This document shows, one piece after another, positions 6,393 to 56,299 of a stretch of 64,000 bases of DNA. Origin of the DNA: Escherichia coli (GTDB lineage Bacteria > Pseudomonadota > Gammaproteobacteria > Enterobacterales > Enterobacteriaceae); NCBI RefSeq assembly GCF_009931435.1, contig NZ_CP043414.1; one strand, given 5' to 3'. Position numbers and translations under genes: made by a program. The notes below the pieces were generated by a model that was not told the origin of the DNA, made no database searches, and saw nothing but the letters and a program-made list of their open reading frames with translations. The stretch's first letter is position 1; each line of letters begins with the position of its first letter.

Positions 6393-7094
6393 TCAGATAA
6401 ACGCAAACGCATCGCCAAACAGGCGGTCTTCCCGCGCATTACGCTCACTGCAAAACAGGTCACGGGCGATTTTCGCCATCTCAAAACGCCCGGCAATGTA
6501 GATATCATGCTCTGCCAGCGTGCCGTGATCCTGCAATACCGCCGTTAACACGGTGCCAGTACGCCCACGCCAACCCGCTTCCGGTTGTTCAACCACCGGC
6601 ACCACTTGCAGACCAGGATGCTTCAGCGAAAGCGCCTCAAGCTCGCAGAGATCATAAAGATGCTGCTCTTCACGCCCCCCCCAGTAAATGGTGATATCAC
6701 GGTTTGGGTTACGCGCCAGCGCCGTCAGCAAAATCGAGCGCGCATAAGAGAACCCGGTGCCACCCGCAATCAAAATCATCGGACGTTCTTCATCATCGCG
6801 CAGCCACGCTTCTCCGTGGGGAATATCGACCACGATTTGATGATCTTTGAGGATACGGTCCATGACTGCTTTCGCGTAAAGGTTGATTTCAGAAGCGCCA
6901 ATATGCAGCTCGATAAACTCTTTTTCATCCGGCGTCGAAGCCATTGAGAATGGACGTTTATCGCGCTCATCCATCACCACCATCAAATACTGACCAGCAC
7001 GAAAAGAAAAGGCCGCGTCTGGCACGATTCGAACACGATATACGGTATCGGTGATAGCTTCTACCGAGGTCACTTTACAGCTTAAGGTTGTCAT
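6393..7094 (-). CDS. fre: NAD(P)H-flavin reductase Fre
   Basis: Track ORF 6393..7127 trimmed to [31 protein letters not shown]... (233 aa). Confidence 0.92.
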
Positions 7095-7139
7095 GCGCTT
7101 TCTCTGTCGGATCGATAAATAGGGCAAAACAAACGCGCA

Positions 7140-8633
7140 TCAGGCGCTTTTACCGTTGTTAAAGATGGCCAGTTCATCCCAGATGGCGTCAATATGCGCG
7201 ACAACATCCGGATCTTTTTTGATGGGACGTCCCCATTCACGCTGGGTTTCCCCTGGCCATTTATTCGTGGCATCCAGCCCCATTTTTGAACCCAGCCCGG
7301 AGACAGGCGAGGCAAAATCCAGATAATCAATAGGCGTATTTTCTACCAGAACAGTATCCCGCGCCGGGTCCATACGGGTGGTAATCGCCCAAATCACATC
7401 GTTCCAGTCGCGTGCGTTGACGTCATCATCGCAAACGATCACAAATTTAGTGTACATAAACTGGCGTAAGAACGACCAGACGCCCATCATGACGCGCTTC
7501 GCGTGTCCGGCGTACTGTTTTTTGATCGTCACTACCGCCAGGCGATAAGAGCAGCCTTCCGGCGGCAGGTAAAAATCGACAATTTCCGGGAACTGTTTTT
7601 GCAGAATCGGCACAAACACTTCGTTCAGTGCGACACCCAGCACAGCAGGTTCATCCGGCGGACGCCCGGTATAGGTGGAATGATAAATCGCATCTTCACG
7701 CTGGGTAATATGCGTCACAGTAAATACCGGGAAACTATCGACTTCGTTATAGTAACCGGTGTGGTCGCCATACGGCCCTTCCGGCGCCGTTTCACCTTGT
7801 TCGATATACCCTTCCAGCACAATCTCCGCACTGGCGGGCACTTCAAGGTCATTGGAGATACACTTCACCACTTCGGTCTTGGTGCCGCGCAGCAATCCGG
7901 CAAACGCATATTCTGAAAGTGTATCCGGAACGGGCGTTACCGCACCGAGAATCGTAGCGGGATCAGCACCCAGCGCCACAGAAACCGGGAAACGTTCGCC
8001 CGGATGCGCCGCGCACCACTCCTGATAATCCAGCGCGCCGCCGCGATGCGACAGCCAACGCATAATCAGTTTGTTTTTACCAATCAGCTGCTGGCGATAA
8101 ATACCCAGATTCTGCCGTTCTTTATTCGGGCCGCGCGTTACGGTCAGCCCCCAGGTAATCAGCGGCGCGGCATCTTCCGGCCAGCAGGTCATAATGGGAA
8201 TGCGGTTAAGATCGACGTCATCGCCAGAGACGATTTTTTGTTGGCAGGGCGCACCACGCAGTCGCTTTGTCGGCATGTTCAATACTTGTTTAAACTGCGG
8301 CAGTTTATCAAACAGGTCGCGGAAACCTTTTGGCGGCTCCGGCTCTTTCAGAAACGCCAATAATTTACCCACTTCACGCAGCGCCGAAACATCTTCCTGC
8401 CCCATGCCCATCGCCACGCGCTTTGGCGTACCGAACAGGTTGCACAGCACCGGCATTGAGTAGCCTTTAGGGTTTTCGAACAACAACGCAGGCCCACCGG
8501 CACGCAAAGTGCGGTCAGCAATTTCAGTGATTTCCAGATGCGGATCCACCGGGAGCGTGATACGTTTTAGCTCACCCTGCTGTTCAAGCAGCGTCAGGAA
8601 GTCGCGTAAATCGTTATATTTCATGGCATCCAT
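7140..8633 (-). CDS. ubiD: 3-octaprenyl-4-hydroxybenzoate decarboxylase UbiD
   Basis: 497-aa [44 protein letters not shown]...; matches UbiD. Confidence 0.95.
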
Positions 8634-24919: not shown

Positions 24920-25780
24920 ATGGTACAGGTGACGCTTTGCGCATCATCGTTGGGATATCTTTTCCCGCAAAATGAAACGCAAGATTTACGTCTGCATAGT
25001 GCTTTTAAACATGCGGTAAATCTGTATTCAGAAGCGGGAACATTCATCACTCTGTTGTGTGCGCAAACGTATCTGAATCTCCCTGATGCCGCCAGAGTCA
25101 ACCTGCCTGAGAATTGGGACTGGCGAAGAGAGATTGCCCATTCAGATCCCATTCAGTTAACCCCAGGCTTGTTACAAACACCTCGCTTTTGCGTGGTGCT
25201 TCATAACACAACACTTTGGCAACCGCCATTTGTGGGGGGAATGCTGACACTTGAGGCATTCCCTTTGGTTTTCCAGCACTACCCAACGATGGCATCGCAA
25301 CGGCTTTTATTTTGTCTGGAGCATAACGTTCAAAGCACATTGCACCTGCCGGATAGTCTCACGCACCAGGGATTAGCGATTATGGAACATCCAGATGCAC
25401 TGGAACGCCAGGTGCCACAACTGATCGGCTTTGGTAAAGGCTTAACGCCCGATGGAGATGACTATTTGTTGGGCTATCTGGCAGCGCTCTGGTTATGGCA
25501 ACTCCCTGCAACACTTGCCGATCATCAATACCGGTTGCAGCAGGCAATTGATCAACATGCGCACAACACCACGGATATCAGTCGTCATTATCTGGAGCGT
25601 GCGCTTCAGGGGCATTTTTCAGAACCGATTTGCCAGTTACTCGCACAACTGGTTGGGGGCGCATCGGAAATGACAATCGCATCCTGTGCAGAACAGGTCA
25701 TGCAATTTGGCGCAACGTCAGGAGTAGATTGCCTTGCAGGAATGCTGCATGGCTTTCGAACCCTGAACACCATGAATTGA
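24920..25780 (+). CDS. DUF2877-family protein (YlbF/YahE-like)
   Basis: 286-aa ORF starting 6 bp after the hydrolase stop; resemblance to YlbF/YahE proteins that accompany FdrA-like genes. Confidence 0.55.
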   Translation: MVQVTLCASSLGYLFPQNETQDLRLHSAFKHAVNLYSEAGTFITLLCAQTYLNLPDAARVNLPENWDWRREIAHSDPIQLTPGLLQTPRFCVVLHNTTLWQPPFVGGMLTLEAFPLVFQHYPTMASQRLLFCLEHNVQSTLHLPDSLTHQGLAIMEHPDALERQVPQLIGFGKGLTPDGDDYLLGYLAALWLWQLPATLADHQYRLQQAIDQHAHNTTDISRHYLERALQGHFSEPICQLLAQLVGGASEMTIASCAEQVMQFGATSGVDCLAGMLHGFRTLNTMN

Positions 25781-25874
25781 TTTCAACCTTTTCTCCCGTA
25801 GCCCATTTATGGCGCTACACGGGGATGCTTTGCCCGAATTTTGCTATCGGGCGGAATAAAACAGGCGTAACAGC

Positions 25875-27434
25875 ATGAAAGTTAAATATAAAGTTTTCAG
25901 CAATCTTTATCAGGACTCGGTTTCTCTGATGCAGATTTCCGCGCAAATCAGTAAGTTGCCCGGTATTCAACAGGCCTCGGTCGTCATGGGAACACCCAAT
26001 AATCTCGAACAATTGCGCGATGCGGGTCTGGGTAACGAAATCAACGCCAGTCCCAATGATTTAGTGATTGCAGTCATGGGTGAAGAAGATATTTGCAATG
26101 AAGCACTGATACTGGCCCAGCAACGTCTGACCAGCAAACCCGATGATGAAACGGATAGTGGCATTAAAACACCGGAAAATGTCAGCCTGGAAATGGCACT
26201 GGAAGCCGACACCGAAGCCAACCTGGCACTCATTTCTGTACCGGGAGACTACGCCGCCGCCGAAGCAATTAAAGCGTTAAACCTCGGAATGAACGTGATG
26301 ATGTTCAGCGATAACGTCAGTATCGGGCAGGAAAAATCCATCAAAACACTTGCCCGAGAACGTCAGCGCATCGTAATGGGACCTGATTGTGGAACCGCCA
26401 TTGTTAACGGCATTCCGTTAGGCTTCGCTAATGTGGTGAAACGCGGAGCAATTGGTGTTATTGGCGCGTCAGGCACCGGGCTACAGGAAGTGACTTGCCG
26501 AATCGACCAGCTCGGAGCGGGTATTTCTCAGGCGTTGGGAACAGGCGGGCATGATCTCAGTGAAGAGATTGGTGGAATATCGATGCTCTTCGCTTTAGAT
26601 GCGCTGGCGCAAGACGATGAAACTCGCGTGATTGTGCTTATTTCAAAACCGCCTTCACCGATCGTTGCCCGGGCTATTCTGGAGCGCGCCGAGGCTTGTG
26701 GAAAACCCGTGGTGGTGAATTTCCTCGGTGCGAATCCGCATGATCTGGCACGTCCCAATATCACCGCTGCCGCCACACTTGCCAGCGCCGCAAATATCGC
26801 CGTGGCAGTACTGAATGATCAGCCACTTCCGACTGTCGAGACCGAGATTTCCTGCGACGATCTCACAATGTTACAAAACGCCTGCCAGCGTCTGCCAGCC
26901 CATCGCCAGGCGATACGCGGTGTTTTCGCCGGAGGAACCTTCTGTTACGAAGCGCAACTTATCTGCCAGCAAAAGGGATTCAGCGCCGCCTCCAATACGC
27001 CAGTTGCGGGTAATCGTACTCTGGCAAATATCTGGCAAAGCAAAGGTCACACGCTGATCGATATGGGCGACGATGATTTCACCCGTGGCAAACCGCATCC
27101 AATGATCGACCCGACTCTGCGCAATCAACGTCTGCTCAACGAACTCAACGACTCACACACTGCCGTCGTGTTATTCGACCTGGTACTTGGTTATGGCGCT
27201 TCCGCTACGCCTGCCAGCGAATTACTGGACCAACTTTCACACATCGACATGAATAACGCACCGTTGCTGATTGCGCACGTTTGCGGAACGGAAGCTGATC
27301 CGCAAATACGCAGTCAGCAGATAAGCGCACTACAAAATGCGGGCATCATCATTGCCAGCAGCAATGCACAGGCGGCGCTATGGGCCAGCGCCGTTGCGCA
27401 GACTCAGTTGCAGAAAAAGGGGCTAAACGCATGA
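25875..27434 (+). CDS. FdrA-family protein (CoA-ligase-like; FdrA/YahF paralogue)
   Basis: 519-aa ORF MKVKYKVFSNLYQDSVSLMQISAQ...; conserved blocks NVMMFSDNV, MGPDCGT, GVIGASGTGLQE and GKPHPMIDPTLRNQ match remembered FdrA. Confidence 0.75.
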   Translation: MKVKYKVFSNLYQDSVSLMQISAQISKLPGIQQASVVMGTPNNLEQLRDAGLGNEINASPNDLVIAVMGEEDICNEALILAQQRLTSKPDDETDSGIKTPENVSLEMALEADTEANLALISVPGDYAAAEAIKALNLGMNVMMFSDNVSIGQEKSIKTLARERQRIVMGPDCGTAIVNGIPLGFANVVKRGAIGVIGASGTGLQEVTCRIDQLGAGISQALGTGGHDLSEEIGGISMLFALDALAQDDETRVIVLISKPPSPIVARAILERAEACGKPVVVNFLGANPHDLARPNITAAATLASAANIAVAVLNDQPLPTVETEISCDDLTMLQNACQRLPAHRQAIRGVFAGGTFCYEAQLICQQKGFSAASNTPVAGNRTLANIWQSKGHTLIDMGDDDFTRGKPHPMIDPTLRNQRLLNELNDSHTAVVLFDLVLGYGASATPASELLDQLSHIDMNNAPLLIAHVCGTEADPQIRSQQISALQNAGIIIASSNAQAALWASAVAQTQLQKKGLNA

Positions 27435-28855
27435 ATACCTTATTTAATCAGCCTTTGAAGGTCGTGAACGCGGGACTACACAGTTTTGCTGACAATATTC
27501 AACATGCCGGGGGAAGCGCAATTGCACTCAACTGGCAGCCACCAGCACAAGGCGATATTGACGCTGGATTGGATCTGGCATCGTTGCTACGTCATCCACT
27601 AGTAGAAAATGCCAATCAAATCGCCATGACACGTTATCTCGAAGCACAACCCGTGCTGGTGGATGTCATGCTCGCTAAAGAGGCCATTCCAGCAATGGCT
27701 GAACAAAAACGTATTTTGCACTCTGGTCCGCCGATTGCCTGGGAAGAGATGTGTGGTCCGGTAAAAGGGGCGATTATTGGTGCCATGCTGTACGAAGGTT
27801 GGGCCACCAGCCAGCAAGACGCTGAAAACCAGATAAACACAGGCGAAATCGACCTTGCCCCTTGTCATCATTATCACGCGGTTGGACCAATGGCAGGCAT
27901 CATCAGCCCGTCGATGCCGTTATGGGTGGTAGAAAACAAAACCAACGGCCACCGTACTTTTAGCAATTTCAATGAAGGTCTGGGTAAGGTTCTCCGTTTT
28001 GGTGCCAATAACGATGAAGTTCTCAATCGTCTGGCCTGGATGCGCGATGAACTGGCACCGGCAATGAAAGCAGCAATCGCACAACACGGCGAGCTGGAAC
28101 TCAAGCCATTAATGGCGCAGGCGCTGCATATGGGGGATGAAGTTCATAACCGCAATGCTGCCGCTACCGGTTTGCTGATTAAGCGCCTGCTCCCGGCATT
28201 GCTGGCCTGCTCTATTCCACAGGAACATATCCAGCGCGTCGTGGCATTTATCACCAGTAACGATCACTTCTTCCTCAATCTGTCGATGGCTGCCTGTAAA
28301 GCGATGATGGATGCCGCCGCCAATGTACCGTTCAGTTCAATGGTTACGGTGATGGCGCGTAACGGGGTGAATTTTGGTATTCGGCTTTCCGGTACTGGCG
28401 ATCGCTGGTTCCAGGCTCCTGCCAATGCAGTTGAAGGTCTGTTCTTCCCCGGATTTGGCGTCGACGATGCCGCTGCTGACCTGGGTGATAGCGCAATTAC
28501 CGAAACCGCAGGTGTGGGTGGCTTCGCGATGGCGTCATCTCCAGCGATCGTCAAATTTGTGGGAGGCACCCCTGCCGATGCCACCAATAACAGCCGTAGG
28601 ATGCAAGCAATCACCCTCGGTGGTAACCCCGCATTTACACTTCCTGCCCTCAATTTTGCCCCCACCGCAGCAGGGATTGATGCGCGTAAAGTGACCGATC
28701 GCGGCATTTTACCGGTCATCAATACGGGTATCGCCCACAAACAAGCGGGGGTCGGGCAAATTGGTGCCGGGATCACCACTGCGCCGATGGCCTGTTTTGT
28801 CGCCGCTGTACGTGCACTGTCTGAGATCGTCGCAAAGGAGAACCATCATGGTTAA
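27431..28855 (+). CDS. DUF1116-family protein (YlbE/YahG-like)
   Basis: Track ORF 27380..28855 trimmed to MNTLFNQPLKVVNAGLHSFADNIQ...; ATGA overlap with the FdrA-like stop. Confidence 0.65.
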   Translation: MNTLFNQPLKVVNAGLHSFADNIQHAGGSAIALNWQPPAQGDIDAGLDLASLLRHPLVENANQIAMTRYLEAQPVLVDVMLAKEAIPAMAEQKRILHSGPPIAWEEMCGPVKGAIIGAMLYEGWATSQQDAENQINTGEIDLAPCHHYHAVGPMAGIISPSMPLWVVENKTNGHRTFSNFNEGLGKVLRFGANNDEVLNRLAWMRDELAPAMKAAIAQHGELELKPLMAQALHMGDEVHNRNAAATGLLIKRLLPALLACSIPQEHIQRVVAFITSNDHFFLNLSMAACKAMMDAAANVPFSSMVTVMARNGVNFGIRLSGTGDRWFQAPANAVEGLFFPGFGVDDAAADLGDSAITETAGVGGFAMASSPAIVKFVGGTPADATNNSRRMQAITLGGNPAFTLPALNFAPTAAGIDARKVTDRGILPVINTGIAHKQAGVGQIGAGITTAPMACFVAAVRALSEIVAKENHHG

Positions 28856-29804
28856 GCCACTGGCTGTTGTCGCAGTTGGCGGCAATGCGCTCATTCAGGA
28901 CGAGCAACGCAATAGTATTCCCGATCAATATGTTGCAGTGATGGAAAGCGTGCAGCATATCGTTGATATGGTTGAAGCCGGATGGGACCTGGTGCTTACC
29001 CACGGTAATGGCCCGCAGGTGGGCTTTATTCTGCGCCGCTCTGAACTCGCCAGTAACGAAGTTTCTCCGGTTCCACTTGATTACGCCGTGGGTGATACAC
29101 AAGGTGCAATTGGCTACATGTTCCAGAAAGCGCTGCATAACGAATTGGCTCGCCGTGGCATAAACAAACCGGTAATTGCGCTGGTGACACAAACGCGAGT
29201 CTGCCCACATGACGATGCTTTCACCAGCCCCAGTAAACCGATTGGCGCGTTTCTCGATGAAGCAACGGCCCTACAACGCCAACAGCAACTCGGCTGGACG
29301 CTGATGGAGGACGCCGGGCGTGGTTGGCGGCGTACAGTTCCCTCTCCTGCGCCACTGGAAATTATTGAGCACGACACCATCGCTCACCTGGTGCGCCAGG
29401 GATATCTGGTTATTGCCTGCGGCGGTGGCGGTATTCCGGTGGTGCGAGACGGACAACAACTGAAAGGTGTGGAAGCCGTGATCGATAAAGATCTGGCCTC
29501 CGCGCTGCTCGCCAGTCAGTTAGGCGCAGATCTGCTGGTGATCCCCACCGGTGTAGAAAAAGTGGCGATTAACTTTGGTACACCACAACAACAGTGGCTC
29601 GACGCTATCAGCGTTGCCGAAGCGCAAACGCTGTTACGGGAAGGTCAGTTTGGTGTCGGCAGTATGCAGCCCAAAGTGGAAGCCATTGTTGATTTCATCA
29701 ATGCCAGCCAACAACAAGGCAAACAGGCCAGCGGCCTGATTACTTCACCGCAAACCATAAAAGCAGCCCTTTCGCATCAGAGCGGCACATGGATAACCCT
29801 TTAA
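28848..29804 (+). CDS. Carbamate kinase-family protein (ArcC/YahI-like)
   Basis: Track ORF 28761..29804 trimmed to MVKPLAVVAVGGNALIQDEQ... after AAGGAG RBS; amino-acid-kinase fold signatures (AVGGNAL, THGNGPQVG, VIACGGGGIPV); overlaps upstream gene by 8 nt. Confidence 0.75.
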   Translation: MVKPLAVVAVGGNALIQDEQRNSIPDQYVAVMESVQHIVDMVEAGWDLVLTHGNGPQVGFILRRSELASNEVSPVPLDYAVGDTQGAIGYMFQKALHNELARRGINKPVIALVTQTRVCPHDDAFTSPSKPIGAFLDEATALQRQQQLGWTLMEDAGRGWRRTVPSPAPLEIIEHDTIAHLVRQGYLVIACGGGGIPVVRDGQQLKGVEAVIDKDLASALLASQLGADLLVIPTGVEKVAINFGTPQQQWLDAISVAEAQTLLREGQFGVGSMQPKVEAIVDFINASQQQGKQASGLITSPQTIKAALSHQSGTWITL

Positions 29805-29820
29805 TTCTCTGGAGAACTCA

Positions 29821-30210
29821 ATGACTACAACACTTTTAGCCGTTAACGGAACGCTGATGCGTGGCCTGGAACTCAACCCAAATATGCAAAAAGCGGGCGG
29901 CATTTTTGTCCGTGAAGACCGAACTGACGCCCATTACAGGTTGTGGAGTATTAACGATCGTCATCCGGGAATGATTCGCGTGAATGAAGGAGGAACACAC
30001 GTCGACGTAGAAATTTGGCAATTACCACTGACCAGTTTTGCCGCTCTGTTAATGAGCGAACCCGCTGGGCTGGCAATTGGCAAAATCAAACTTGCCGATG
30101 GTAGCGAAGTGCTGGGCGTACTGGCAGAAAACTGGCTGACCGAAGGCCAACGGGAAATTACAGAACTGGGTAGCTGGCGCAAATACACCGGGCATTTTCA
30201 TACTGTGTAA
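29821..30210 (+). CDS. Small protein, possibly gamma-glutamylcyclotransferase / AIG2-like fold
   Basis: 129-aa ORF MTTTLLAVNGTLMRGLELNPNM...; the N-terminal [YV]G[ST]LM/K motif resembles GGCT-like proteins; weak assignment. Confidence 0.4.
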   Translation: MTTTLLAVNGTLMRGLELNPNMQKAGGIFVREDRTDAHYRLWSINDRHPGMIRVNEGGTHVDVEIWQLPLTSFAALLMSEPAGLAIGKIKLADGSEVLGVLAENWLTEGQREITELGSWRKYTGHFHTV

Positions 30211-30235
30211 CGCGCATTTTTAAAGGGAACATACT

Positions 30236-31459
30236 ATGCGTAAAAAAGAAGAGAATCTGAATACAGCATCAGGATTGCGTATTGCCATGATTTTACTGGG
30301 TATTGCCGTCACACCTGTGCTGTTGTCATCCTCAAGCCTCGGCAATCAACTTTCCAGCGGCAGTTTAATTAGCGTCGTATTGTTAGGCGGCGTCATTCTG
30401 ACCTTACTTTCAGCCATCACCATTAGCGTGGGAGAAAAAGCCCGCCTGCCAACGTATGGCATTGTGAAATATTCGTTTGGCGAAAAAGGGGCCATCGCCA
30501 TTAACATTTTGATGGCGATAAGTCTGTTCGGCTGGATTGCCGTTACCGCCAATATGTTTGGTCATTCGGTACATGACTTACTGGCTCAACATGGACTGGA
30601 AGTTCCACTAGCACTGTTAGTGGCTGCTGGCTGTGTCATTTTTGTCGCCTCTACAGCATTTGGTTTTGCCGTTCTGGGAAAAATTGCCCAGGTTGCCGTG
30701 CCGGTTATCGCGCTGGTGCTGTGTTACATCCTCTATGTGGCAACCCATACCGAAGTGGCAGCACCAGCGGTGATTGTGGAGATGAATACGGGTGTCGCTG
30801 TTTCCACCGTTGTTGGCACCATTATTGTGCTGGTTGCCACACTGCCTGATTTCGGTAGTTTTGTGCATAACCGCAAACATGCGCTGATTGCCGCAGGCGT
30901 GACGTTTCTGGTTGCCTACCCTCTGCTCTACTGGGCGGGAGCAACGCCGAGCGCCATTAGTGGTCAGGGATCTTTACTGGGTGCGATGGCGGTATTCGGT
31001 GCGGTTCTGCCCGCGGCGCTGTTGTTGATTTTCGCCTGCGTCACCGGTAACGCGGGCAATATGTTCCAGGGCACGCTGGTGGTTTCCACACTGCTTACCC
31101 ACTTTCCCAAATGGCAGATTACCGTGGCGCTGGGTATCCTTTCCGCCATCGTAGGCAGTCTGGATATTATGGCGTGGTTTATTCCGTTTCTGCTGTTCCT
31201 GGGTATCGCCACGCCACCCGTTGCCGGAATTTATATCGCTGACTTTTTCCTTTATCGCCGTAATGGCTATCAAGAGTCAGTGTTAGCCCAGGAGTCACAG
31301 ATCAAAGTGCTGACATTCGCAGCATGGATCATAGGTGCAGCGGTTGGCTTTATGACCGTAAAAGGCTTATTCACCCTGACGACAATCCCTTCGGTAGACT
31401 CGATTCTGGTGGCATGTATCGCGTATGCGATTCTCAGTCGGGCAAGTCAACGCCGCTAA
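30236..31459 (+). CDS. Polytopic membrane permease, possibly nucleobase-cation symporter (CodB/NCS1-like)
   Basis: 407-aa highly hydrophobic ORF with about 12 predicted TM stretches; family assignment tentative. Confidence 0.5.
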   Translation: MRKKEENLNTASGLRIAMILLGIAVTPVLLSSSSLGNQLSSGSLISVVLLGGVILTLLSAITISVGEKARLPTYGIVKYSFGEKGAIAINILMAISLFGWIAVTANMFGHSVHDLLAQHGLEVPLALLVAAGCVIFVASTAFGFAVLGKIAQVAVPVIALVLCYILYVATHTEVAAPAVIVEMNTGVAVSTVVGTIIVLVATLPDFGSFVHNRKHALIAAGVTFLVAYPLLYWAGATPSAISGQGSLLGAMAVFGAVLPAALLLIFACVTGNAGNMFQGTLVVSTLLTHFPKWQITVALGILSAIVGSLDIMAWFIPFLLFLGIATPPVAGIYIADFFLYRRNGYQESVLAQESQIKVLTFAAWIIGAAVGFMTVKGLFTLTTIPSVDSILVACIAYAILSRASQRR

Positions 31460-43609: not shown

Positions 43610-43660
43610 TAACGTAAAAGCAGGTAAACTGCTTTTACCCATAAAAAATGAGTTTTGCCA

Positions 43661-44551
43661 ATGGACACCAAACAAACGCGGCAGGGCGTATTACTCGCTC
43701 TTGCCGCTTATTTTATTTGGGGTATTGCGCCAGCGTACTTCAAGCTGATTTACTACGTGCCCGCCGATGAGATCCTGACGCATCGCGTGATCTGGTCGTT
43801 TTTCTTTATGGTGGTGCTGATGAGCATTTGCCGCCAGTGGTCCTATTTAAAAACGCTGATTCAGACACCAAAGAAAATCTTCATGCTGGCCGTCTCTGCC
43901 GTGCTGATTGGTGGCAACTGGCTACTGTTTATCTGGGCGGTGAACAATCACCATATGCTGGAAGCGAGCCTTGGTTACTTTATTAACCCGCTGGTGAACA
44001 TTGTGCTGGGGATGATTTTCCTCGGCGAGCGATTCCGCCGGATGCAATGGCTGGCGGTGATTCTGGCGATATGTGGTGTATTGGTCCAGCTCTGGACTTT
44101 TGGTTCGCTGCCAATCATCGCGCTGGGGCTGGCGTTTAGTTTTGCCTTCTACGGCCTGGTACGCAAGAAAATTGCCGTTGAAGCGCAAACCGGCATGTTA
44201 ATCGAAACCATGTGGCTGCTGCCCGTGGCGGCGATTTACCTGTTTGCTATTGCCGACAGCTCAACCAGCCATATGGGGCAAAACCCGATGTCGCTGAATT
44301 TACTGCTGATCGCCGCCGGTATTGTCACCACCGTGCCACTGTTATGTTTTACCGCAGCAGCTACACGCTTACGACTCTCAACATTAGGCTTTTTCCAGTA
44401 CATTGGGCCGACGCTAATGTTCCTGTTGGCAGTGACGTTTTATGGTGAAAAACCGGGAGCCGATAAGATGGTGACTTTCGCCTTTATTTGGGTAGCGCTG
44501 GCAATTTTTGTGATGGATGCGATTTATACGCAGCGTAGAACGTCCAAATAA
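43661..44551 (+). CDS. rarD: EamA-family transporter RarD
   Basis: Track ORF 43655..44551 trimmed to MDTKQTRQGVLLALAAYFIWGIAPAYFKLIYYVPADEIL... Confidence 0.92.
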   Translation: MDTKQTRQGVLLALAAYFIWGIAPAYFKLIYYVPADEILTHRVIWSFFFMVVLMSICRQWSYLKTLIQTPKKIFMLAVSAVLIGGNWLLFIWAVNNHHMLEASLGYFINPLVNIVLGMIFLGERFRRMQWLAVILAICGVLVQLWTFGSLPIIALGLAFSFAFYGLVRKKIAVEAQTGMLIETMWLLPVAAIYLFAIADSSTSHMGQNPMSLNLLLIAAGIVTTVPLLCFTAAATRLRLSTLGFFQYIGPTLMFLLAVTFYGEKPGADKMVTFAFIWVALAIFVMDAIYTQRRTSK

Positions 44552-44854
44552 ATATATTCTGAAAAAATATGCCTGCTCTTGCATGAGAGTGGGCATATTG
44601 TCATGCTGACAGGATACTCACATAAGGAAAGGCAGAATTTCCAGACGTCGTTGTATATTTTCATTTGCTTTAATAAATTCCATTTTTGGTAAATTCAGCA
44701 TTATGTTATTAGCGATGAGCAAGACCAATCATTAACCAAGTTCTCTTCAGAATGTAATGAAAAATGTGAAGTGCATTTCTTTTTTAAAAATTTTTTACCC
44801 TATTATTTCTTATCAAATTAACATTGCCCTTAATTATAAGAAAGGAGAATATAA

Positions 44855-45703
44855 ATGAACAACATATTAGGCTCATCAATTAATATGCCCTGTACACTTT
44901 TCGAAACTATTACTTTATTCGATGATTTCTCTGCTGATGATATGCAGTATGGGGATATGGAAGAACAAGATTTTCTCTCACTCGGCTTAAGCGACATCTC
45001 TGCAAAAGTTGATCCTTACCGCCTCATTAAATACCATTTTCCTGGGCCGAATTCTACTTATGGTGCTTTTAGTATTCCAACTTCTGGAACAAAAATATCA
45101 CAAAGTGAATGTATTGATATTTTATTTGCAGAAATGAAAGATCTGGCAAAAATGTTTTCCTTTTTTGGACAATACAAAACACTCATCCAGGATCTGATTG
45201 ATCATTTTAGATATGGAAATGGCAACAGTTTCCATAGCCAGGAATTGAACTTATCTTTTCATGAACGAATAAACAAATATGATTATAATAGCCCAATACG
45301 TGTAATCAAAGAATGTATCGAAAATGATATTTCTTCAACACCTACGATAGGATACCGGCCTCTTCTCCTACAAAAGATTAAGACCGAATTACTTTCATCA
45401 AGACTAAATAAATTCAATGATTTTAAAGATAATTTTAATGGCCTGGGAATCAGCATTCATGATATCTCAGCTCAAAAAATATCTCTTTTAAATTTTCAAA
45501 AATATCCTATGGGCTGGAGCGCTACCATTCATTTCATAGCACAAGACCACTTTGGTTTGGATGTGACTGATATAAAAAACAAGATTTACAACAAGTATAG
45601 ATTTTTTCGCATATGGTTCTTTTTACAACGGCATAAAGACTTTGCTTTCAAACCTTTTTTTACCAATTTTAACACTATCGAAAGAATCGAAAATTATCTA
45701 TGA
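44855..45703 (+). CDS. Hypothetical protein, AT-rich accessory cassette gene A (282 aa, no recognisable domain)
   Basis: ORF MNNILGSSINMPCTLFETITLFDDFSADDMQYGDMEEQDF... preceded by strong RBS AAAGGAG; AT-rich codon usage; no signal peptide, no Walker motif. Confidence 0.6.
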   Translation: MNNILGSSINMPCTLFETITLFDDFSADDMQYGDMEEQDFLSLGLSDISAKVDPYRLIKYHFPGPNSTYGAFSIPTSGTKISQSECIDILFAEMKDLAKMFSFFGQYKTLIQDLIDHFRYGNGNSFHSQELNLSFHERINKYDYNSPIRVIKECIENDISSTPTIGYRPLLLQKIKTELLSSRLNKFNDFKDNFNGLGISIHDISAQKISLLNFQKYPMGWSATIHFIAQDHFGLDVTDIKNKIYNKYRFFRIWFFLQRHKDFAFKPFFTNFNTIERIENYL

Positions 45704-46197
45704 AAAGCAAACTCCAGAAAATTATATTATATTTATTTCTTCTATGCTGCATCTATAATTTATGGACATTGCGTCCTGTACAGATTTTGTATACATACTC
45801 TGATGCTGGCAATTCAGTCTTTCTGGTCGTTGATCATCTGCCATGGACTGATAGCGATAAAATAAATTGGTATCTGAAGCATCAGGATGAAATTAAAAGT
45901 CAAAATCCCCTACCAGAAGGTAGTTGGCATACCTGGTATGTTATTGATATCGGTAATGGCTTCACTGACTATAAAAAATATATCGAAGGGCCGTATGAAG
46001 ATCTCTACTGTTTCCCGACGATTAAGAGCAATGATAATTGCATCGTAAAAAACTATTTAATGGTTATTAATGAATATCCTTACCGTAATACTCATTTTTT
46101 TATTGCTGATAACAATGAGTATCAACTAACCCAGGAAAATAAGATAGAGCGAGTGTTCAACCCGCATGACTTTGAAAAAGACAATTTTCAGCAATAA
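45700..46197 (+). CDS. Hypothetical membrane-anchored/secreted protein, cassette gene B (165 aa)
   Basis: ORF MKSKLQKIILYLFLLCCIYNLWTLRPVQ... with N-terminal hydrophobic anchor; start overlaps gene A stop (ATGA); AT-rich. Confidence 0.6.
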   Translation: MKSKLQKIILYLFLLCCIYNLWTLRPVQILYTYSDAGNSVFLVVDHLPWTDSDKINWYLKHQDEIKSQNPLPEGSWHTWYVIDIGNGFTDYKKYIEGPYEDLYCFPTIKSNDNCIVKNYLMVINEYPYRNTHFFIADNNEYQLTQENKIERVFNPHDFEKDNFQQ

Positions 46198-46232
46198 GCC
46201 GGATAAAGAACAATCTTTACCCGGCATTTATA

Positions 46233-47183
46233 TTACAACCAGTTCTTCCGCTTAAAGTACAGATACGGTGCCAGGCCCGCGAGGATCATAAAGATAATCG
46301 CGCCTGGGTAGCCGAAGCTCCACTTCAGTTCCGGCATAAACTCAAAGTTCATCCCGTAGCTGGAAGCGACCAGCGTCGGTGGCAGGAACACCACGGATAC
46401 CACCGAGAAGATTTTGATGATGCGGTTCTGCTCGATATTGATAAAGCCCATCGCCGCCTGCATCAGGAAGTTCACCTTCTGGAACAGGGATTCGTTATGC
46501 GGCAGCAGGGATTCGATATCTCGCAGGATTTCACGCGCCTGTTCCAGTTGTCCACCCGGTAAACGCGCTTTACGCACCAGGAAATTGAGCGCACGCTGGG
46601 TATCCATAAGACACAGGCGAACTTTCCAGCCGATATCTTCCAGCTCCGCCAGTGTGGAGAGTGCTTCGTCGTACTCATCGCCCTGATGCCCTTCCATAAT
46701 TACCCGGCTCAACTGCTCCAGGTCGCTGTAGATATTTTCAATTTCATCTGCCAACTGTTCGATTTTGGTTTCGAACAGATCCAGCAGCAGCTCGTAGGCG
46801 TTACCGTCCACCATTGACTGGCTACGGGCACGCATACGATACAGACGAAAAGCGGGTAGCTCGCGCTCACGCAGGGTAAACAGGCGACCGTCGCGGATGG
46901 TAAATGCCACAGTGGAGTTACCGGCGTGATCTTCCGCATCTTCAAAGAAGAAGAAGGAGTGAATATGCAGGCCGTCATCGTCTTCAAAGAAACGCGCCGA
47001 TGCTTCGATGTCTTCCAGTTCTGGGCGTGTTGCCAGGCTCTGCCCAAGTTCAGATTGTACGCGCAGTCGCTCGTCGTCATCCGGTTCGACAAGATCAATC
47101 CATACTGCATTTACAAGGGGTTGTGACTCTTCGACTTCCAGCCGGGTCAGTCGGTTATTTTCCAGTTGAAATGCGCTCAGCAT
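46233..47183 (-). CDS. corA: Magnesium/cobalt transport protein CorA
   Basis: Track ORF 46233..47198 trimmed to [31 protein letters not shown]... (316 aa); C-terminal YGMNF motif. Confidence 0.95.
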
Positions 47184-47552
47184 GACCGGGACTCCCAATG
47201 CTTAAAATATCGGACAGTTCGGTGGGCACACAGAAACAAATTGGGTTTCAGACCATTAAACAGCCTGACTCAGCGCGACGGGAAAAATTGAGGTCGCTGA
47301 CAACCGCTAAGGCTATCAGCAAAAAGGGATAGCCTTAGGAGTTGATCCTGGATGACAGGATAATGAGCCAGTATCTACTGGGTGTGTCCAAGGCGAATGT
47401 CCTCTTAGAGTGATCGTGCGCGCATGTTACGCCAGCAAAATTTTGCCGTCAACACGCAACAGAACACCACAGAACAATAGTTGAACTTCGCGCTTTTTGG
47501 TACTCGTCAAGGTCGCTAACAGGATAAAAAAATCCCACATCCAGGACCTATA

Positions 47553-48317: not shown

Positions 48318-48349
48318 AACAACCGTTTTGTGTCACTGAATATGGTGCA

Positions 48350-48465
48350 GATGCCGGATGCGGCGCAAACGCCTTACCCGGCCTACATGACATTGCAATT
48401 TATTGAATCTACATGATTTTGTAGGCCGGATAAGGTGCGCAGCACCGCATCCGGCAACGTTATAC
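48350..48465. repeat. REP element cluster between yigE and uvrD
   Basis: GATGCCGGATGCGGCGCAAACGCCTTACCCGGCCTACA and TGTAGGCCGGATAAGGTGCGCAGCACCGCATCCGGCA motifs. Confidence 0.7.
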
Positions 48466-54083: not shown

Positions 54084-54271
54084 TATGGATTGCCTGTAAA
54101 GTTCATCGCTTTCTGCTTTCTATCATCGCAGGAGAAGACGTAAAAGCAAGCGTTTAGCGACTCTTTATGAAGTCTGAAAAATGAGGAATTGCTGCGAGTA
54201 TAACGCTTACACGTGGGGATTTATGTTTTGCTGATAGTTTCGTGATCGGCACCTCGCGCCAGGATGGCTTT

Positions 54272-56299
54272 ATGCACTATCGCAATGTGGTTTGTTTGTT
54301 GTCTTTTTTAGTTCCGTCAGCGTGGGGATGCTCGCTCGGTGAACCTGATCATAATATTTACCAGAAACAGGGAAAAGGCGTGGTATACCTGCGCCCTAAT
54401 GAAGAGACAAATCTTTCGTTACCGGAAGTAAATTACCAGCGACTGCGTCGTTTACCTGATTTATTCATTGTTCCTGACACCCAGGACGATGGGGAAAAAG
54501 AACCGCCGTTAAACGACCTTACCACCGATTATATTGATCAGGGCGCATGGGCCTGGTATCCAAATTATGCTTACTTTAGCGATGGCCGTTTTGTTATTTA
54601 TGCGGGCAAGATTGTACAAAATCCATCTGGTTATCCACCGGTCGATGTAGCCTCGTTCCATTCATGGGGCGATTTTGCCGTCGATAAAAACAGCATTTAT
54701 TACAAAGGCCAACGGACAGATGAAAATGGCGGCAAGCAACGCGTCGATGAAAAAACGCTGCGCAAAGTAGGATTAGGTAGCCGTTGGATGCCTGATCGGC
54801 TGGGATTGGTGCTACGTGACGCGCATTTTCTTTATATCGATGGGCACCGTTTTGATAACCCAGAGAGTTTTTCCGTGATCGCGCAAAAATCCTGGGGTCA
54901 ACAAGGGAAATTCGCTTCAACGTTTTTTCCCTGCATTGCCTACCCCTTTGGCCCGTGGGATATGCTTACCCGCACACGAACAAAGTTGCTGATCAATGGA
55001 GAGCAACTGGATGCAGATCCGGACAATTTTTCTGTCGTTCGCTGGATGCCCGGCACCCTGTTTAGCTGGCGTGATAAACACGGCGAGCATCGTAAAGTCA
55101 TTGATCAGGTTCGTTTGGCAAGGAATGAAGATATATCCCGGCAATGTGACAACTTTACGCTGTTAGAAAAAAAGGTGTTCTGGCGCAAGGGGCCAGATTG
55201 TGAGCAGGAAGAATTACCCAGTCTCGACCCGGAGCAGTTTCACCCGATCAGTGACATCGTGGCGCAGTATCAGGACAAGTTGTATGCAATCAGTAAGACC
55301 CCCTTCGGTGAAAATCAGTTGGAGATCATCACCCTGGATAACCCGAATCTGATCATCAATAAACGTTTTAATGCCGGAAGGCATCATGGCTATTTAATCA
55401 CCCGATCAACAAATTGGGACGGACATGAGAAAGACGGTTTACAGGTGTTTGAATCCGTTGGCCCACTGATACTGCTGGACTACCGTGTGCCGAATGAAGC
55501 AGATGCACACCGTGGCAATAACCCGCATTACAAAAAATGGTTTGCTCGCGACGATCGTTACGTTTATGCATTCGATGGTGCGCAGCTTTGGCGTTACCCT
55601 ACGCAATATCCCAAAGCGGCACGTATCAAAGCCGCTAAAGACGACTGGCTGAACGTCAGCCTTAGCCAATTGGACGGTGAGATAATGAAAGATGGCTCAT
55701 TTACTCCCACTGGCATCAAGCACACATCCTCTTTAAAACCCGCCAAGGCATACGAAGATGGGGACAATGAATCTTCATTTATCGTAAATAAATCGGGAGT
55801 AGGCTGGCGAAAAGCGCTTTCACCCGACCTGCAATGGAGTGAGTGGCATTACCTGGAAGGCATTTATCCAAAAAAGTTACATCTGATTACCGAACGTATT
55901 GCACAGTACAAAAACCAACTCTACGTCGTCAGGCGCTCGCATTTTGGAGAAGATCGGCTAGAAATCATAGAGTTGGAGTCATCTTTGCCCATCAAAAATA
56001 AACCGATAAATACGGGCAAGGAGCGTCATTACTTTCTGCAAAGTACCCGACAAAAACAGGATGTGCAGGTATTCACCAGCAGCGGTGCGCTGATAGCAAC
56101 GGAGCGCTTTGCTTATGACGATAGCTATGTCTACACCTGGATTGACGATCAGCTTTATCGCACACCCTCCCCCTGCCCAGCGAAAACATACGTCAGAGAA
56201 AAGAATGTCCGTGAAATTCATAACAGCGACATTATTATTCCGGTGACGGAGGAATCGTGCCGGAACGCAGCAGCAGACGGGCAAACTTTGAAGCCCTGA
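54272..56299 (+). CDS. Large secreted/lipoprotein-like repeat protein with DKNYY-like motifs, accessory insertion
   Basis: Track ORF 54242..56299; likely start at the Met giving MHYRNVVCLLSFLVPSAWGC (signal peptide with Cys); repeated D-K-N-x-x-Y-Y-like motifs and an internal tandem duplication. Confidence 0.6.
   Translation: MHYRNVVCLLSFLVPSAWGCSLGEPDHNIYQKQGKGVVYLRPNEETNLSLPEVNYQRLRRLPDLFIVPDTQDDGEKEPPLNDLTTDYIDQGAWAWYPNYAYFSDGRFVIYAGKIVQNPSGYPPVDVASFHSWGDFAVDKNSIYYKGQRTDENGGKQRVDEKTLRKVGLGSRWMPDRLGLVLRDAHFLYIDGHRFDNPESFSVIAQKSWGQQGKFASTFFPCIAYPFGPWDMLTRTRTKLLINGEQLDADPDNFSVVRWMPGTLFSWRDKHGEHRKVIDQVRLARNEDISRQCDNFTLLEKKVFWRKGPDCEQEELPSLDPEQFHPISDIVAQYQDKLYAISKTPFGENQLEIITLDNPNLIINKRFNAGRHHGYLITRSTNWDGHEKDGLQVFESVGPLILLDYRVPNEADAHRGNNPHYKKWFARDDRYVYAFDGAQLWRYPTQYPKAARIKAAKDDWLNVSLSQLDGEIMKDGSFTPTGIKHTSSLKPAKAYEDGDNESSFIVNKSGVGWRKALSPDLQWSEWHYLEGIYPKKLHLITERIAQYKNQLYVVRRSHFGEDRLEIIELESSLPIKNKPINTGKERHYFLQSTRQKQDVQVFTSSGALIATERFAYDDSYVYTWIDDQLYRTPSPCPAKTYVREKNVREIHNSDIIIPVTEESCRNAAADGQTLKP

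Follow-up and report, generated by a model that had tools for sequence, protein, structure and literature searches.

Pairs of a DUF3289 toxin and a DUF943 immunity protein are an already described kind of antibacterial system, for which the family, the immunity partner and a crystal structure have been published. Here we report a further, horizontally exchanged member of this family, a two-gene cassette (genes A and B) located between rarD and corA in the block 44552-46232 of a 64-kb stretch of Escherichia coli DNA (contig NZ_CP043414.1 of assembly GCF_009931435.1; "the window" denotes this whole 64-kb stretch throughout). Among the published relatives, T6EC1-T6IC1 of Yersinia pseudotuberculosis IP32881 comprises the same Pfam pair in the same gene order. 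Sent to the periplasm of E. coli BL21, the PAAR-DUF3289 protein of Y. pseudotuberculosis is toxic and causes cell rounding; its DUF943 partner neutralises this toxicity (PMC11148199, 2024). The authors of that study proposed DUF3289 to be a colicin M homologue, and predicted for T6IC1 an N-in/C-out topology with one N-terminal transmembrane helix and the bulk of the protein in the periplasm (PMC11148199), an architecture resembling that of gene B. T6EC1 is a covalent PAAR fusion encoded inside a type VI secretion system (T6SS) operon, whereas gene A has neither a PAAR domain nor a T6SS neighbour. An arrangement like that of the cassette, an orphan DUF3289 gene followed by a gene for a small membrane protein, is found in Aeromonas jandaei DSM 7311 (WP_042032936.1), where the DUF3289 protein is part of the T6SS-dependent secretome and has a T6SS-dependent effector-immunity phenotype (PMC12135965, 2025). 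DUF3289/DUF943 pairs have also been linked with the T6SS in Klebsiella (PMC12469244), and DUF3289 has been reported both fused with an M23 peptidase domain, the gene adjoining a vgrG, and as a C-terminal toxin domain behind a PIX delivery domain (PMC10763514 and a bioRxiv preprint, jointly). It is from these relatives that periplasmic toxicity, rescue by DUF943 and T6SS-dependent secretion are known.

Family membership and structural match of genes A and B

The two genes and the protein features discussed below are located in the window as follows.

44855-45703, + strand: gene A, encoding a stand-alone candidate toxin of the DUF3289/YPO3983 family (282 amino acids, no signal peptide)
45545-45571, + strand: codons of D231-H-F-G-L-D236-V-T-D239 in gene A, the most conserved DUF3289 motif and candidate active site
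45700-46197, + strand: gene B, encoding a candidate DUF943 immunity protein (165 amino acids), its start overlapping the stop of gene A
45721-45771, + strand: N-terminal membrane anchor of gene B (residues ~8-24, after the basic MKSKLQK), from hydropathy and the AlphaFold2 model
46009-46041, + strand: codons of Cys104 and Cys114 in gene B, an invariant pair likely to form a periplasmic disulfide

Genes A and B very likely encode a toxin-immunity pair of the DUF3289/DUF943 family. The strongest evidence is that their independently built structural models match the two chains of one and the same T6SS effector-immunity complex. The best match of the gene A model in the PDB is 9jdi_A, the C-terminal domain (CTD) of BtpeA, from an entry (9JDI) titled as the type VI secretion system effector-immunity complex BtpeA CTD-BtpiA from Bacteroides fragilis. 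The BtpeA CTD (also 9JG8 and 9JG9) shares the DHFGLDxxD and W..LQ motifs with gene A. Sequence identity to BtpeA and BtpiA is only 21% for gene A and 11% for gene B, and the host of BtpeA belongs to a different phylum. BtpeA is a 608-amino-acid protein with an N-terminal part for delivery, encoded in a T6SS locus, whereas gene A encodes a bare 282-amino-acid domain in a housekeeping neighbourhood; for loci of the BtpeA type an effector-encoded PAAR tip has been described (PMC13402684), and gene A has no PAAR.

Profile searches place both proteins in named families over nearly their full length. Gene A is matched by Pfam DUF3289 (PF11692; E = 8.3e-83, model positions 2-270 of 272) and by NCBIfam TIGR03034, "YPO3983 family" (396.3 bits against a cutoff of 156.45, positions 1-274 of 274), with no Pfam domain other than DUF3289 found. 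Gene B is matched by Pfam DUF943 (PF06092; E = 3e-27, model positions 2-150 of 151). RefSeq annotates the pair in strain CFT073 and in the genome closest to the window as "YPO3983 family protein" and "DUF943 family protein". A preliminary description of this DNA, made by eye from the letters, had recognised no motif in gene A, which holds for inspection by eye but not for profile searches. Its proposal of a toxin followed by a membrane-bound immunity partner agrees with the family assignments, with the match to the complex and with the toxicity and rescue reported for relatives (PMC11148199). The novelty that it implied does not stand, both proteins belonging to named families with a published role; with the family, immunity partner and crystal structure already in print, the discovery is incremental.

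Gene A retains all core residues of its family. In an alignment of 67 DUF3289 homologues each residue of the core (DHFGLDxxD, FRxWFxLQ and HD) is invariant or at least 90% conserved: F233 and D239 are invariant, D231, H232, G234, L235 and D236 are kept in at least 90% of the sequences, and gene A holds D231-D236, D239, W254, L257, Q258, H202 and D203. The AlphaFold2 model built from the same 67 homologues has a mean predicted local distance difference test score (pLDDT) of 89.8 and a predicted template modelling score of 0.86; the N-terminal 60-80 residues, which begin with the acidic stretch pointed out in the preliminary description, reach a pLDDT of 95-98 and include a strand at 13-17. PAAR-fused homologues align to residues 8-275 of gene A at about 35-38% identity and, since this alignment starts at residue 8, the 80 conserved residues at the N-terminus are part of the toxin domain itself and not a separate import module. 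Neither a signal peptide nor a hydrophobic segment was found in gene A (maximum hydropathy 1.17).

An exhaustive search for homologues of gene A returned 476 cluster representatives at E <= 1e-3. Its close relatives are stand-alone proteins of ~280 amino acids from Escherichia, Salmonella, Enterobacter, Trabulsiella and Lelliottia. Among 32 longer homologues, fusions to PAAR (10 of 32), Hcp (two) and DUF4280 (one) point to T6SS delivery, while fusions to Peptidase_M23 (three), PG_binding_1 (two), LysM, SH3_3, Peptidase_M14 and a glycoside-hydrolase-like domain point to a peptidoglycan-related target.

Gene B has the features expected of a partner acting in the periplasm according to the topology predicted for T6IC1. 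Its hydrophobic N-terminus, as quoted in the preliminary description, gives a Kyte-Doolittle maximum over 19 residues of 1.59 at residue 8, and the AlphaFold2 model (40 homologues, pLDDT 89.2) consists of a helix at residues 2-24 and, after it, a beta-rich domain. All 40 DUF943 sequences have C104 and C114, which lie on the neighbouring strands 102-104 and 114-116 of the model, suggestive of a disulfide. The model fits an N-in/C-out anchor carrying a disulfide-bonded periplasmic domain of ~140 residues. A DUF943 gene lies directly 3' of the DUF3289 gene in the window, in Salmonella and, twice in tandem, in Enterobacter.

Locus, distribution and evolution of the rarD-corA slot

The remaining features of the locus are these.

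43655-44551, + strand: rarD, left flank of the cassette (open reading frame list)
44552-44687, + strand: rarD-proximal intergenic DNA common to K-12 and not cassette-specific, marking the left boundary
44688-44854, + strand: cassette-specific AT-rich leader with Shine-Dalgarno sequence (read from the sequence)
46198-46225, no strand assigned: terminator-like, GC-rich hairpin of 12 pairs between the stop codons of gene B and corA (terminator scan)
46233-47198, - strand: corA, right flank, convergent with gene B (open reading frame list)

Much of what the preliminary description reported for this locus was recovered. The two co-directional reading frames are present, with the stop of A and the start of B overlapping as ATGA, as is the ribosome-binding site AAAGGAG, a Shine-Dalgarno sequence at 44841-44847, 7 nucleotides 5' of the ATG of gene A. 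The GC content of 44552-46232 is 33.0% (leader 44552-44854, 30.4%; gene A, 32.9%; gene B, 34.1-34.3%) against 51.9% for the whole window, 50.6% for rarD and 53.0% for corA. Compared with all other 1681-bp segments of the 64 kb, the block has the lowest GC content (z = -9.1), and 500-bp segments below 40% GC occur in the window only at the cassette. Third codon positions show the same contrast (GC3 of 0.29 in gene A and 0.36 in gene B; 0.63 in the flanking genes). With a GC content 9.1 standard deviations below the rest and this difference in GC3, the AT-rich block is real and far beyond chance. The left limit given for it needs correction: homology to K-12 covers 44552-44628 and then 44637-44688, and the two E. 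coli alleles of the cassette are homologous from 44688 onward. By sequence comparison, cassette-specific DNA thus begins at about 44688 and not at 44552. In the leader, a promoter scan of the + strand found no site scoring at least 9 of 12, and no LexA box is present between 44552 and 44854, so that a colicin-type SOS regulation of the cassette was rejected. The AT-rich leader may be subject to H-NS-type silencing.

Counting matches with at least 80% coverage, the cassette occurs in 2,621 of the 5,426 complete E. coli genomes searched, and always on the chromosome. About 930 of these are at least 95% identical to the window copy, including CFT073, Nissle 1917 and ATCC 25922, and about 1,600 are 80-90% identical (~88.7% among the matches listed), including O157:H7, E24377A and Rosetta2(DE3), with 114 genomes in between at 90-95%. 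The two E. coli alleles are deeply diverged, with 85% identity for A and 94% for B. The second allele is native to the BL21-derived Rosetta2(DE3) (NZ_CP083274.1); given that BL21 is sensitive to the Yersinia toxin, its native DUF943 protein would seem either not to cross-protect or not to be expressed. On an unlikely reading, the two alleles give no protection against each other and would define competing "kill groups" within the species, at a fixed slot that E. coli has in common with Salmonella.

In K-12 the slot holds yigG/yigF, as the preliminary description had stated and annotation bears out. These genes fill the slot in 2,962 genomes and are AT-rich as well (34.7% GC), and since 2,962 and 2,621 together exceed 5,426, some genomes must carry both yigGF and the cassette. 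BLASTP detected no similarity of A or B to K-12 YigF or YigG, and homology between the two sets of genes was rejected. E. coli genomes show this slot in at least three forms: yigG/yigF, the cassette directly after the rarD terminator region as in the window, and the E24377A type (1,431 genomes), in which the cassette comes after 970 bp of AT-rich DNA and a second, 137-bp copy of the corA 3' end. Judged from its sequence, the E24377A-type arrangement looks like a recombination scar; the extra block and corA duplicate lie at 1359-2500 of the extracted locus. Outside E. coli, the pair occupies the rarD-corA slot in Salmonella enterica (including houtenae, arizonae and salamae) at ~63% amino-acid identity, so positional orthologues of the kind considered in the preliminary description do exist, and no housekeeping role is known for them. 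Enterobacter carries two tandem DUF3289-DUF943 pairs elsewhere in its genome, which look like an effector-immunity array arisen by duplication or serial acquisition. These lie between FadH-like oxidoreductase and FGGY kinase genes (Logan SRR11948719, 6499-9319); the first toxin is shorter (225 amino acids) and its immunity gene does not overlap it.

Ratios of non-synonymous to synonymous substitution (dN/dS) of 0.12-0.17 for gene A and 0.09-0.16 for gene B indicate that both genes are functional and under purifying selection, and both evolve faster than rarD and corA (0-0.055). Full-length copies of gene A occur in both E. coli alleles, in Salmonella and in Enterobacter. Decay is seen in some lineages, with an IS1 insertion in KE51, only the 3' end of the DUF943 gene left in TUM1881, and partial DUF943 genes in Shigella (S. 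sonnei). Between the window and CFT073, synonymous divergence is 0.012 for A and 0 for B, far below the values in corA (0.118) and rarD (0.196), from which it follows that the cassette was recently exchanged between lineages. Together with the base composition, this upholds the horizontal acquisition suggested in the preliminary description. In the pairing of the window with CFT073 the cassette is much younger than its flanks. The synonymous divergence of the flanks is high for a comparison within E. coli, and a match of 99.6% over the region is given by a single complete genome, 2020CK-00188; the window may therefore stem from a divergent Escherichia lineage.

Three further observations concern other parts of the window and its counterparts. 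A 685-amino-acid open reading frame with a lipoprotein-like N-terminus (…SAWGCS) and DKNSIYY-type repeats lies between cyaY and lptM (54242-56299, + strand); no NCBIfam model matches it, its annotation in the closest genome is "hypothetical", and in the Salmonella locus cyaY directly neighbours lptM. An apparent accessory block between udp and rmuC (about 25000-30400, mapped from the closest genome) encodes a TctABC-like tripartite tricarboxylate transporter, a 2-dehydro-3-deoxygalactonokinase, an aldolase and an IclR regulator. Between yigE and uvrD, CFT073 and AGR4587 contain one more gene, assigned by annotation to the S-adenosylmethionine (SAM) hydrolase/SAM-dependent halogenase family (7008-7910 of the CFT073 locus), which is absent from the window (48318-48459) and from K-12.

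Mode of action, delivery and competing explanations

The full proposal, which is likely, reads the block as an orphan DUF3289/DUF943 effector-immunity pair directed against other bacteria. Gene A would encode a 32-kDa toxin lacking an export signal, made in the cytoplasm and harmless there, which would most likely be loaded non-covalently onto the T6SS spike of the producing cell and reach the periplasm of nearby Gram-negative cells by injection. In the target periplasm it would attack cell-wall synthesis, probably through a metal-dependent hydrolase site formed by D231, H232, D236 and D239 with H202 and D203, and its target may be lipid-linked peptidoglycan precursors, as for colicin M. With B translationally coupled to A, synthesis of the toxin would tend to be accompanied by that of its immunity protein. 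The gene B protein would be anchored in the inner membrane by its single N-terminal helix with the disulfide-stabilised beta domain towards the periplasm, where, by analogy with its relatives, this domain would bind and block toxin arriving from sister cells.

It is reasonably probable that the gene A toxin is delivered by a T6SS. CFT073, whose gene A is 99.6% identical to that of the window, has a T6SS cluster at metV. A number of observations weigh against the proposed mechanism, several of them concerning this step. All neighbours of the pair are housekeeping genes, with no T6SS genes in the equivalent 64 kb of the closest genome, and the cassette loci of Salmonella and Enterobacter likewise contain no T6SS genes. 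Pfam recognised no delivery domain in gene A, the MIX, FIX, PIX and WHIX domains not having been specifically searched for. The tssF gene of CFT073 is annotated as frameshifted, and the cassette is also present in Rosetta2(DE3), a B-strain derivative. No published test of a stand-alone E. coli DUF3289 protein was found in the literature. With respect to the mode of action, the gene A model has a weak fold match to colicin M (Foldseek E 0.13-0.76), hhalign gives a DUF3289-ColM comparison a probability of 0.2%, meaning no relationship, and a regular-expression search found the ColM motif DxYDx5HR absent from gene A, which has D231-H-F-G-L-D236-x-x-D239 instead. In the literature DxYDx5HR corresponds to D226, Y228, D229, H235 and R236 of ColM, the sequence of which was confirmed against the PDB.

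Some of these observations would also fit a pair kept mainly as a shield, DUF943 protecting against the DUF3289 toxins of competitors while the cell's own toxin stays silent or undeployed, for example in a strain without an active T6SS. The orphan state of the pair, the leader in which the scan gave no promoter-like site, the occurrence of the cassette in Rosetta2(DE3) and in CFT073 with its frameshifted tssF, and the existence of DUF943-only remnants (TUM1881, and partial genes in Shigella) all favour such a role. It is nevertheless disfavoured, and we consider it quite unlikely, because a dispensable toxin gene is not expected to stay intact: gene A is as constrained as gene B by the dN/dS ranges given above and is full length in both E. 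coli alleles, Salmonella and Enterobacter.

Colicin M with its immunity protein Cmi, and the ColM-like bacteriocins PaeM, syringacin M and pectocins M1 and M2, resemble the DUF3289 relatives in acting in the periplasm and producing a cell-wall defect. That gene A works in the manner of colicin M, by periplasmic attack on cell-wall synthesis, is plausible, and a colicin M-like cleavage of lipid-linked peptidoglycan precursors is possible, with somewhat less than an even chance; its membership of the colicin M family is not established. A profile of the 67 DUF3289 sequences retrieved no ColM-family chain from the PDB at E <= 10 and, this search and hhalign both being negative, a sequence-level link to colicin M was rejected, leaving the weak fold signal. 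As a lead only, a local motif H[YF]xxGNG is common to gene A (HFRYGNG, residues 117-123, window 45203-45223) and ColM (HYLWGNG, residues 135-141). In ColM this motif sits at the start of the catalytic domain. Cmi has an N-terminal helix anchor and faces the periplasm, as gene B is predicted to do. No Cmi-like fold was found for gene B, however, and Cmi-type immunity was rejected for it.

In a second alternative, the gene A product is a bacteriocin like colicin M that leaves the producer, acts without cell contact and enters targets through an outer-membrane receptor and TonB, with gene B as its Cmi. Gene A and colicin M are similar in length (282 and 271 amino acids), they share the local H[YF]xxGNG motif, and residues 17-21 of gene A, ETITL, resemble the TonB boxes ETLTV and DTITV. 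Gene A nevertheless lacks the receptor-binding and TonB-dependent translocation modules of colicin M, and A and B differ from colicin M and Cmi in being co-directional, overlapping and chromosomal. The N-terminal 80 residues are well folded and internal in fused homologues, where they come after PAAR; ETITL itself lies on a folded strand behind PAAR in these fusions and its last position is unconserved (R, L, S, C or P), and it was rejected as a TonB box. Given in addition the leader without a LexA box and the lack of profile similarity to colicin M, this explanation is very unlikely. A two-gene anti-phage defence or abortive-infection module, the other possibility raised in the preliminary description, has only its layout in its favour (an accessory cassette that is small and AT-rich, encodes a membrane protein and sits at a variable position) and is barely credible, as no model of PADLOC-DB 2.0 matches A or B even at E <= 1, both proteins are homologous to an interbacterial effector-immunity complex, and the phenotype in print is toxicity in the periplasm that the partner protein neutralises (PMC11148199).

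Within the DUF3289/DUF943 family, it is unlikely that stand-alone YPO3983-type proteins form a distinct functional subclass, set apart by carrier-free delivery or by chemistry other than that of ColM. In the first case the N-terminal 80 residues (TLFET...DDMxxGDM...VDPYRL) may provide a new kind of docking to the T6SS spike, or the toxin may take a T6SS-independent route; in the second, the DHFGLDxxD/HD cluster may replace the ColM catalytic motif.

What makes the pair interesting is that it is very frequent, occurs as two diverged alleles and has no known loading domain. Being easy to handle genetically, it lends itself to working out the chemistry of DUF3289 and the way in which a toxin without a carrier domain is loaded. 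About half of complete E. coli genomes carry the pair in one of the two diverged alleles and, if the toxin is deployed, the rarD-corA slot would be a common determinant of the coexistence or displacement of E. coli strains in the gut, and would bear on competition between probiotic and pathogenic strains.

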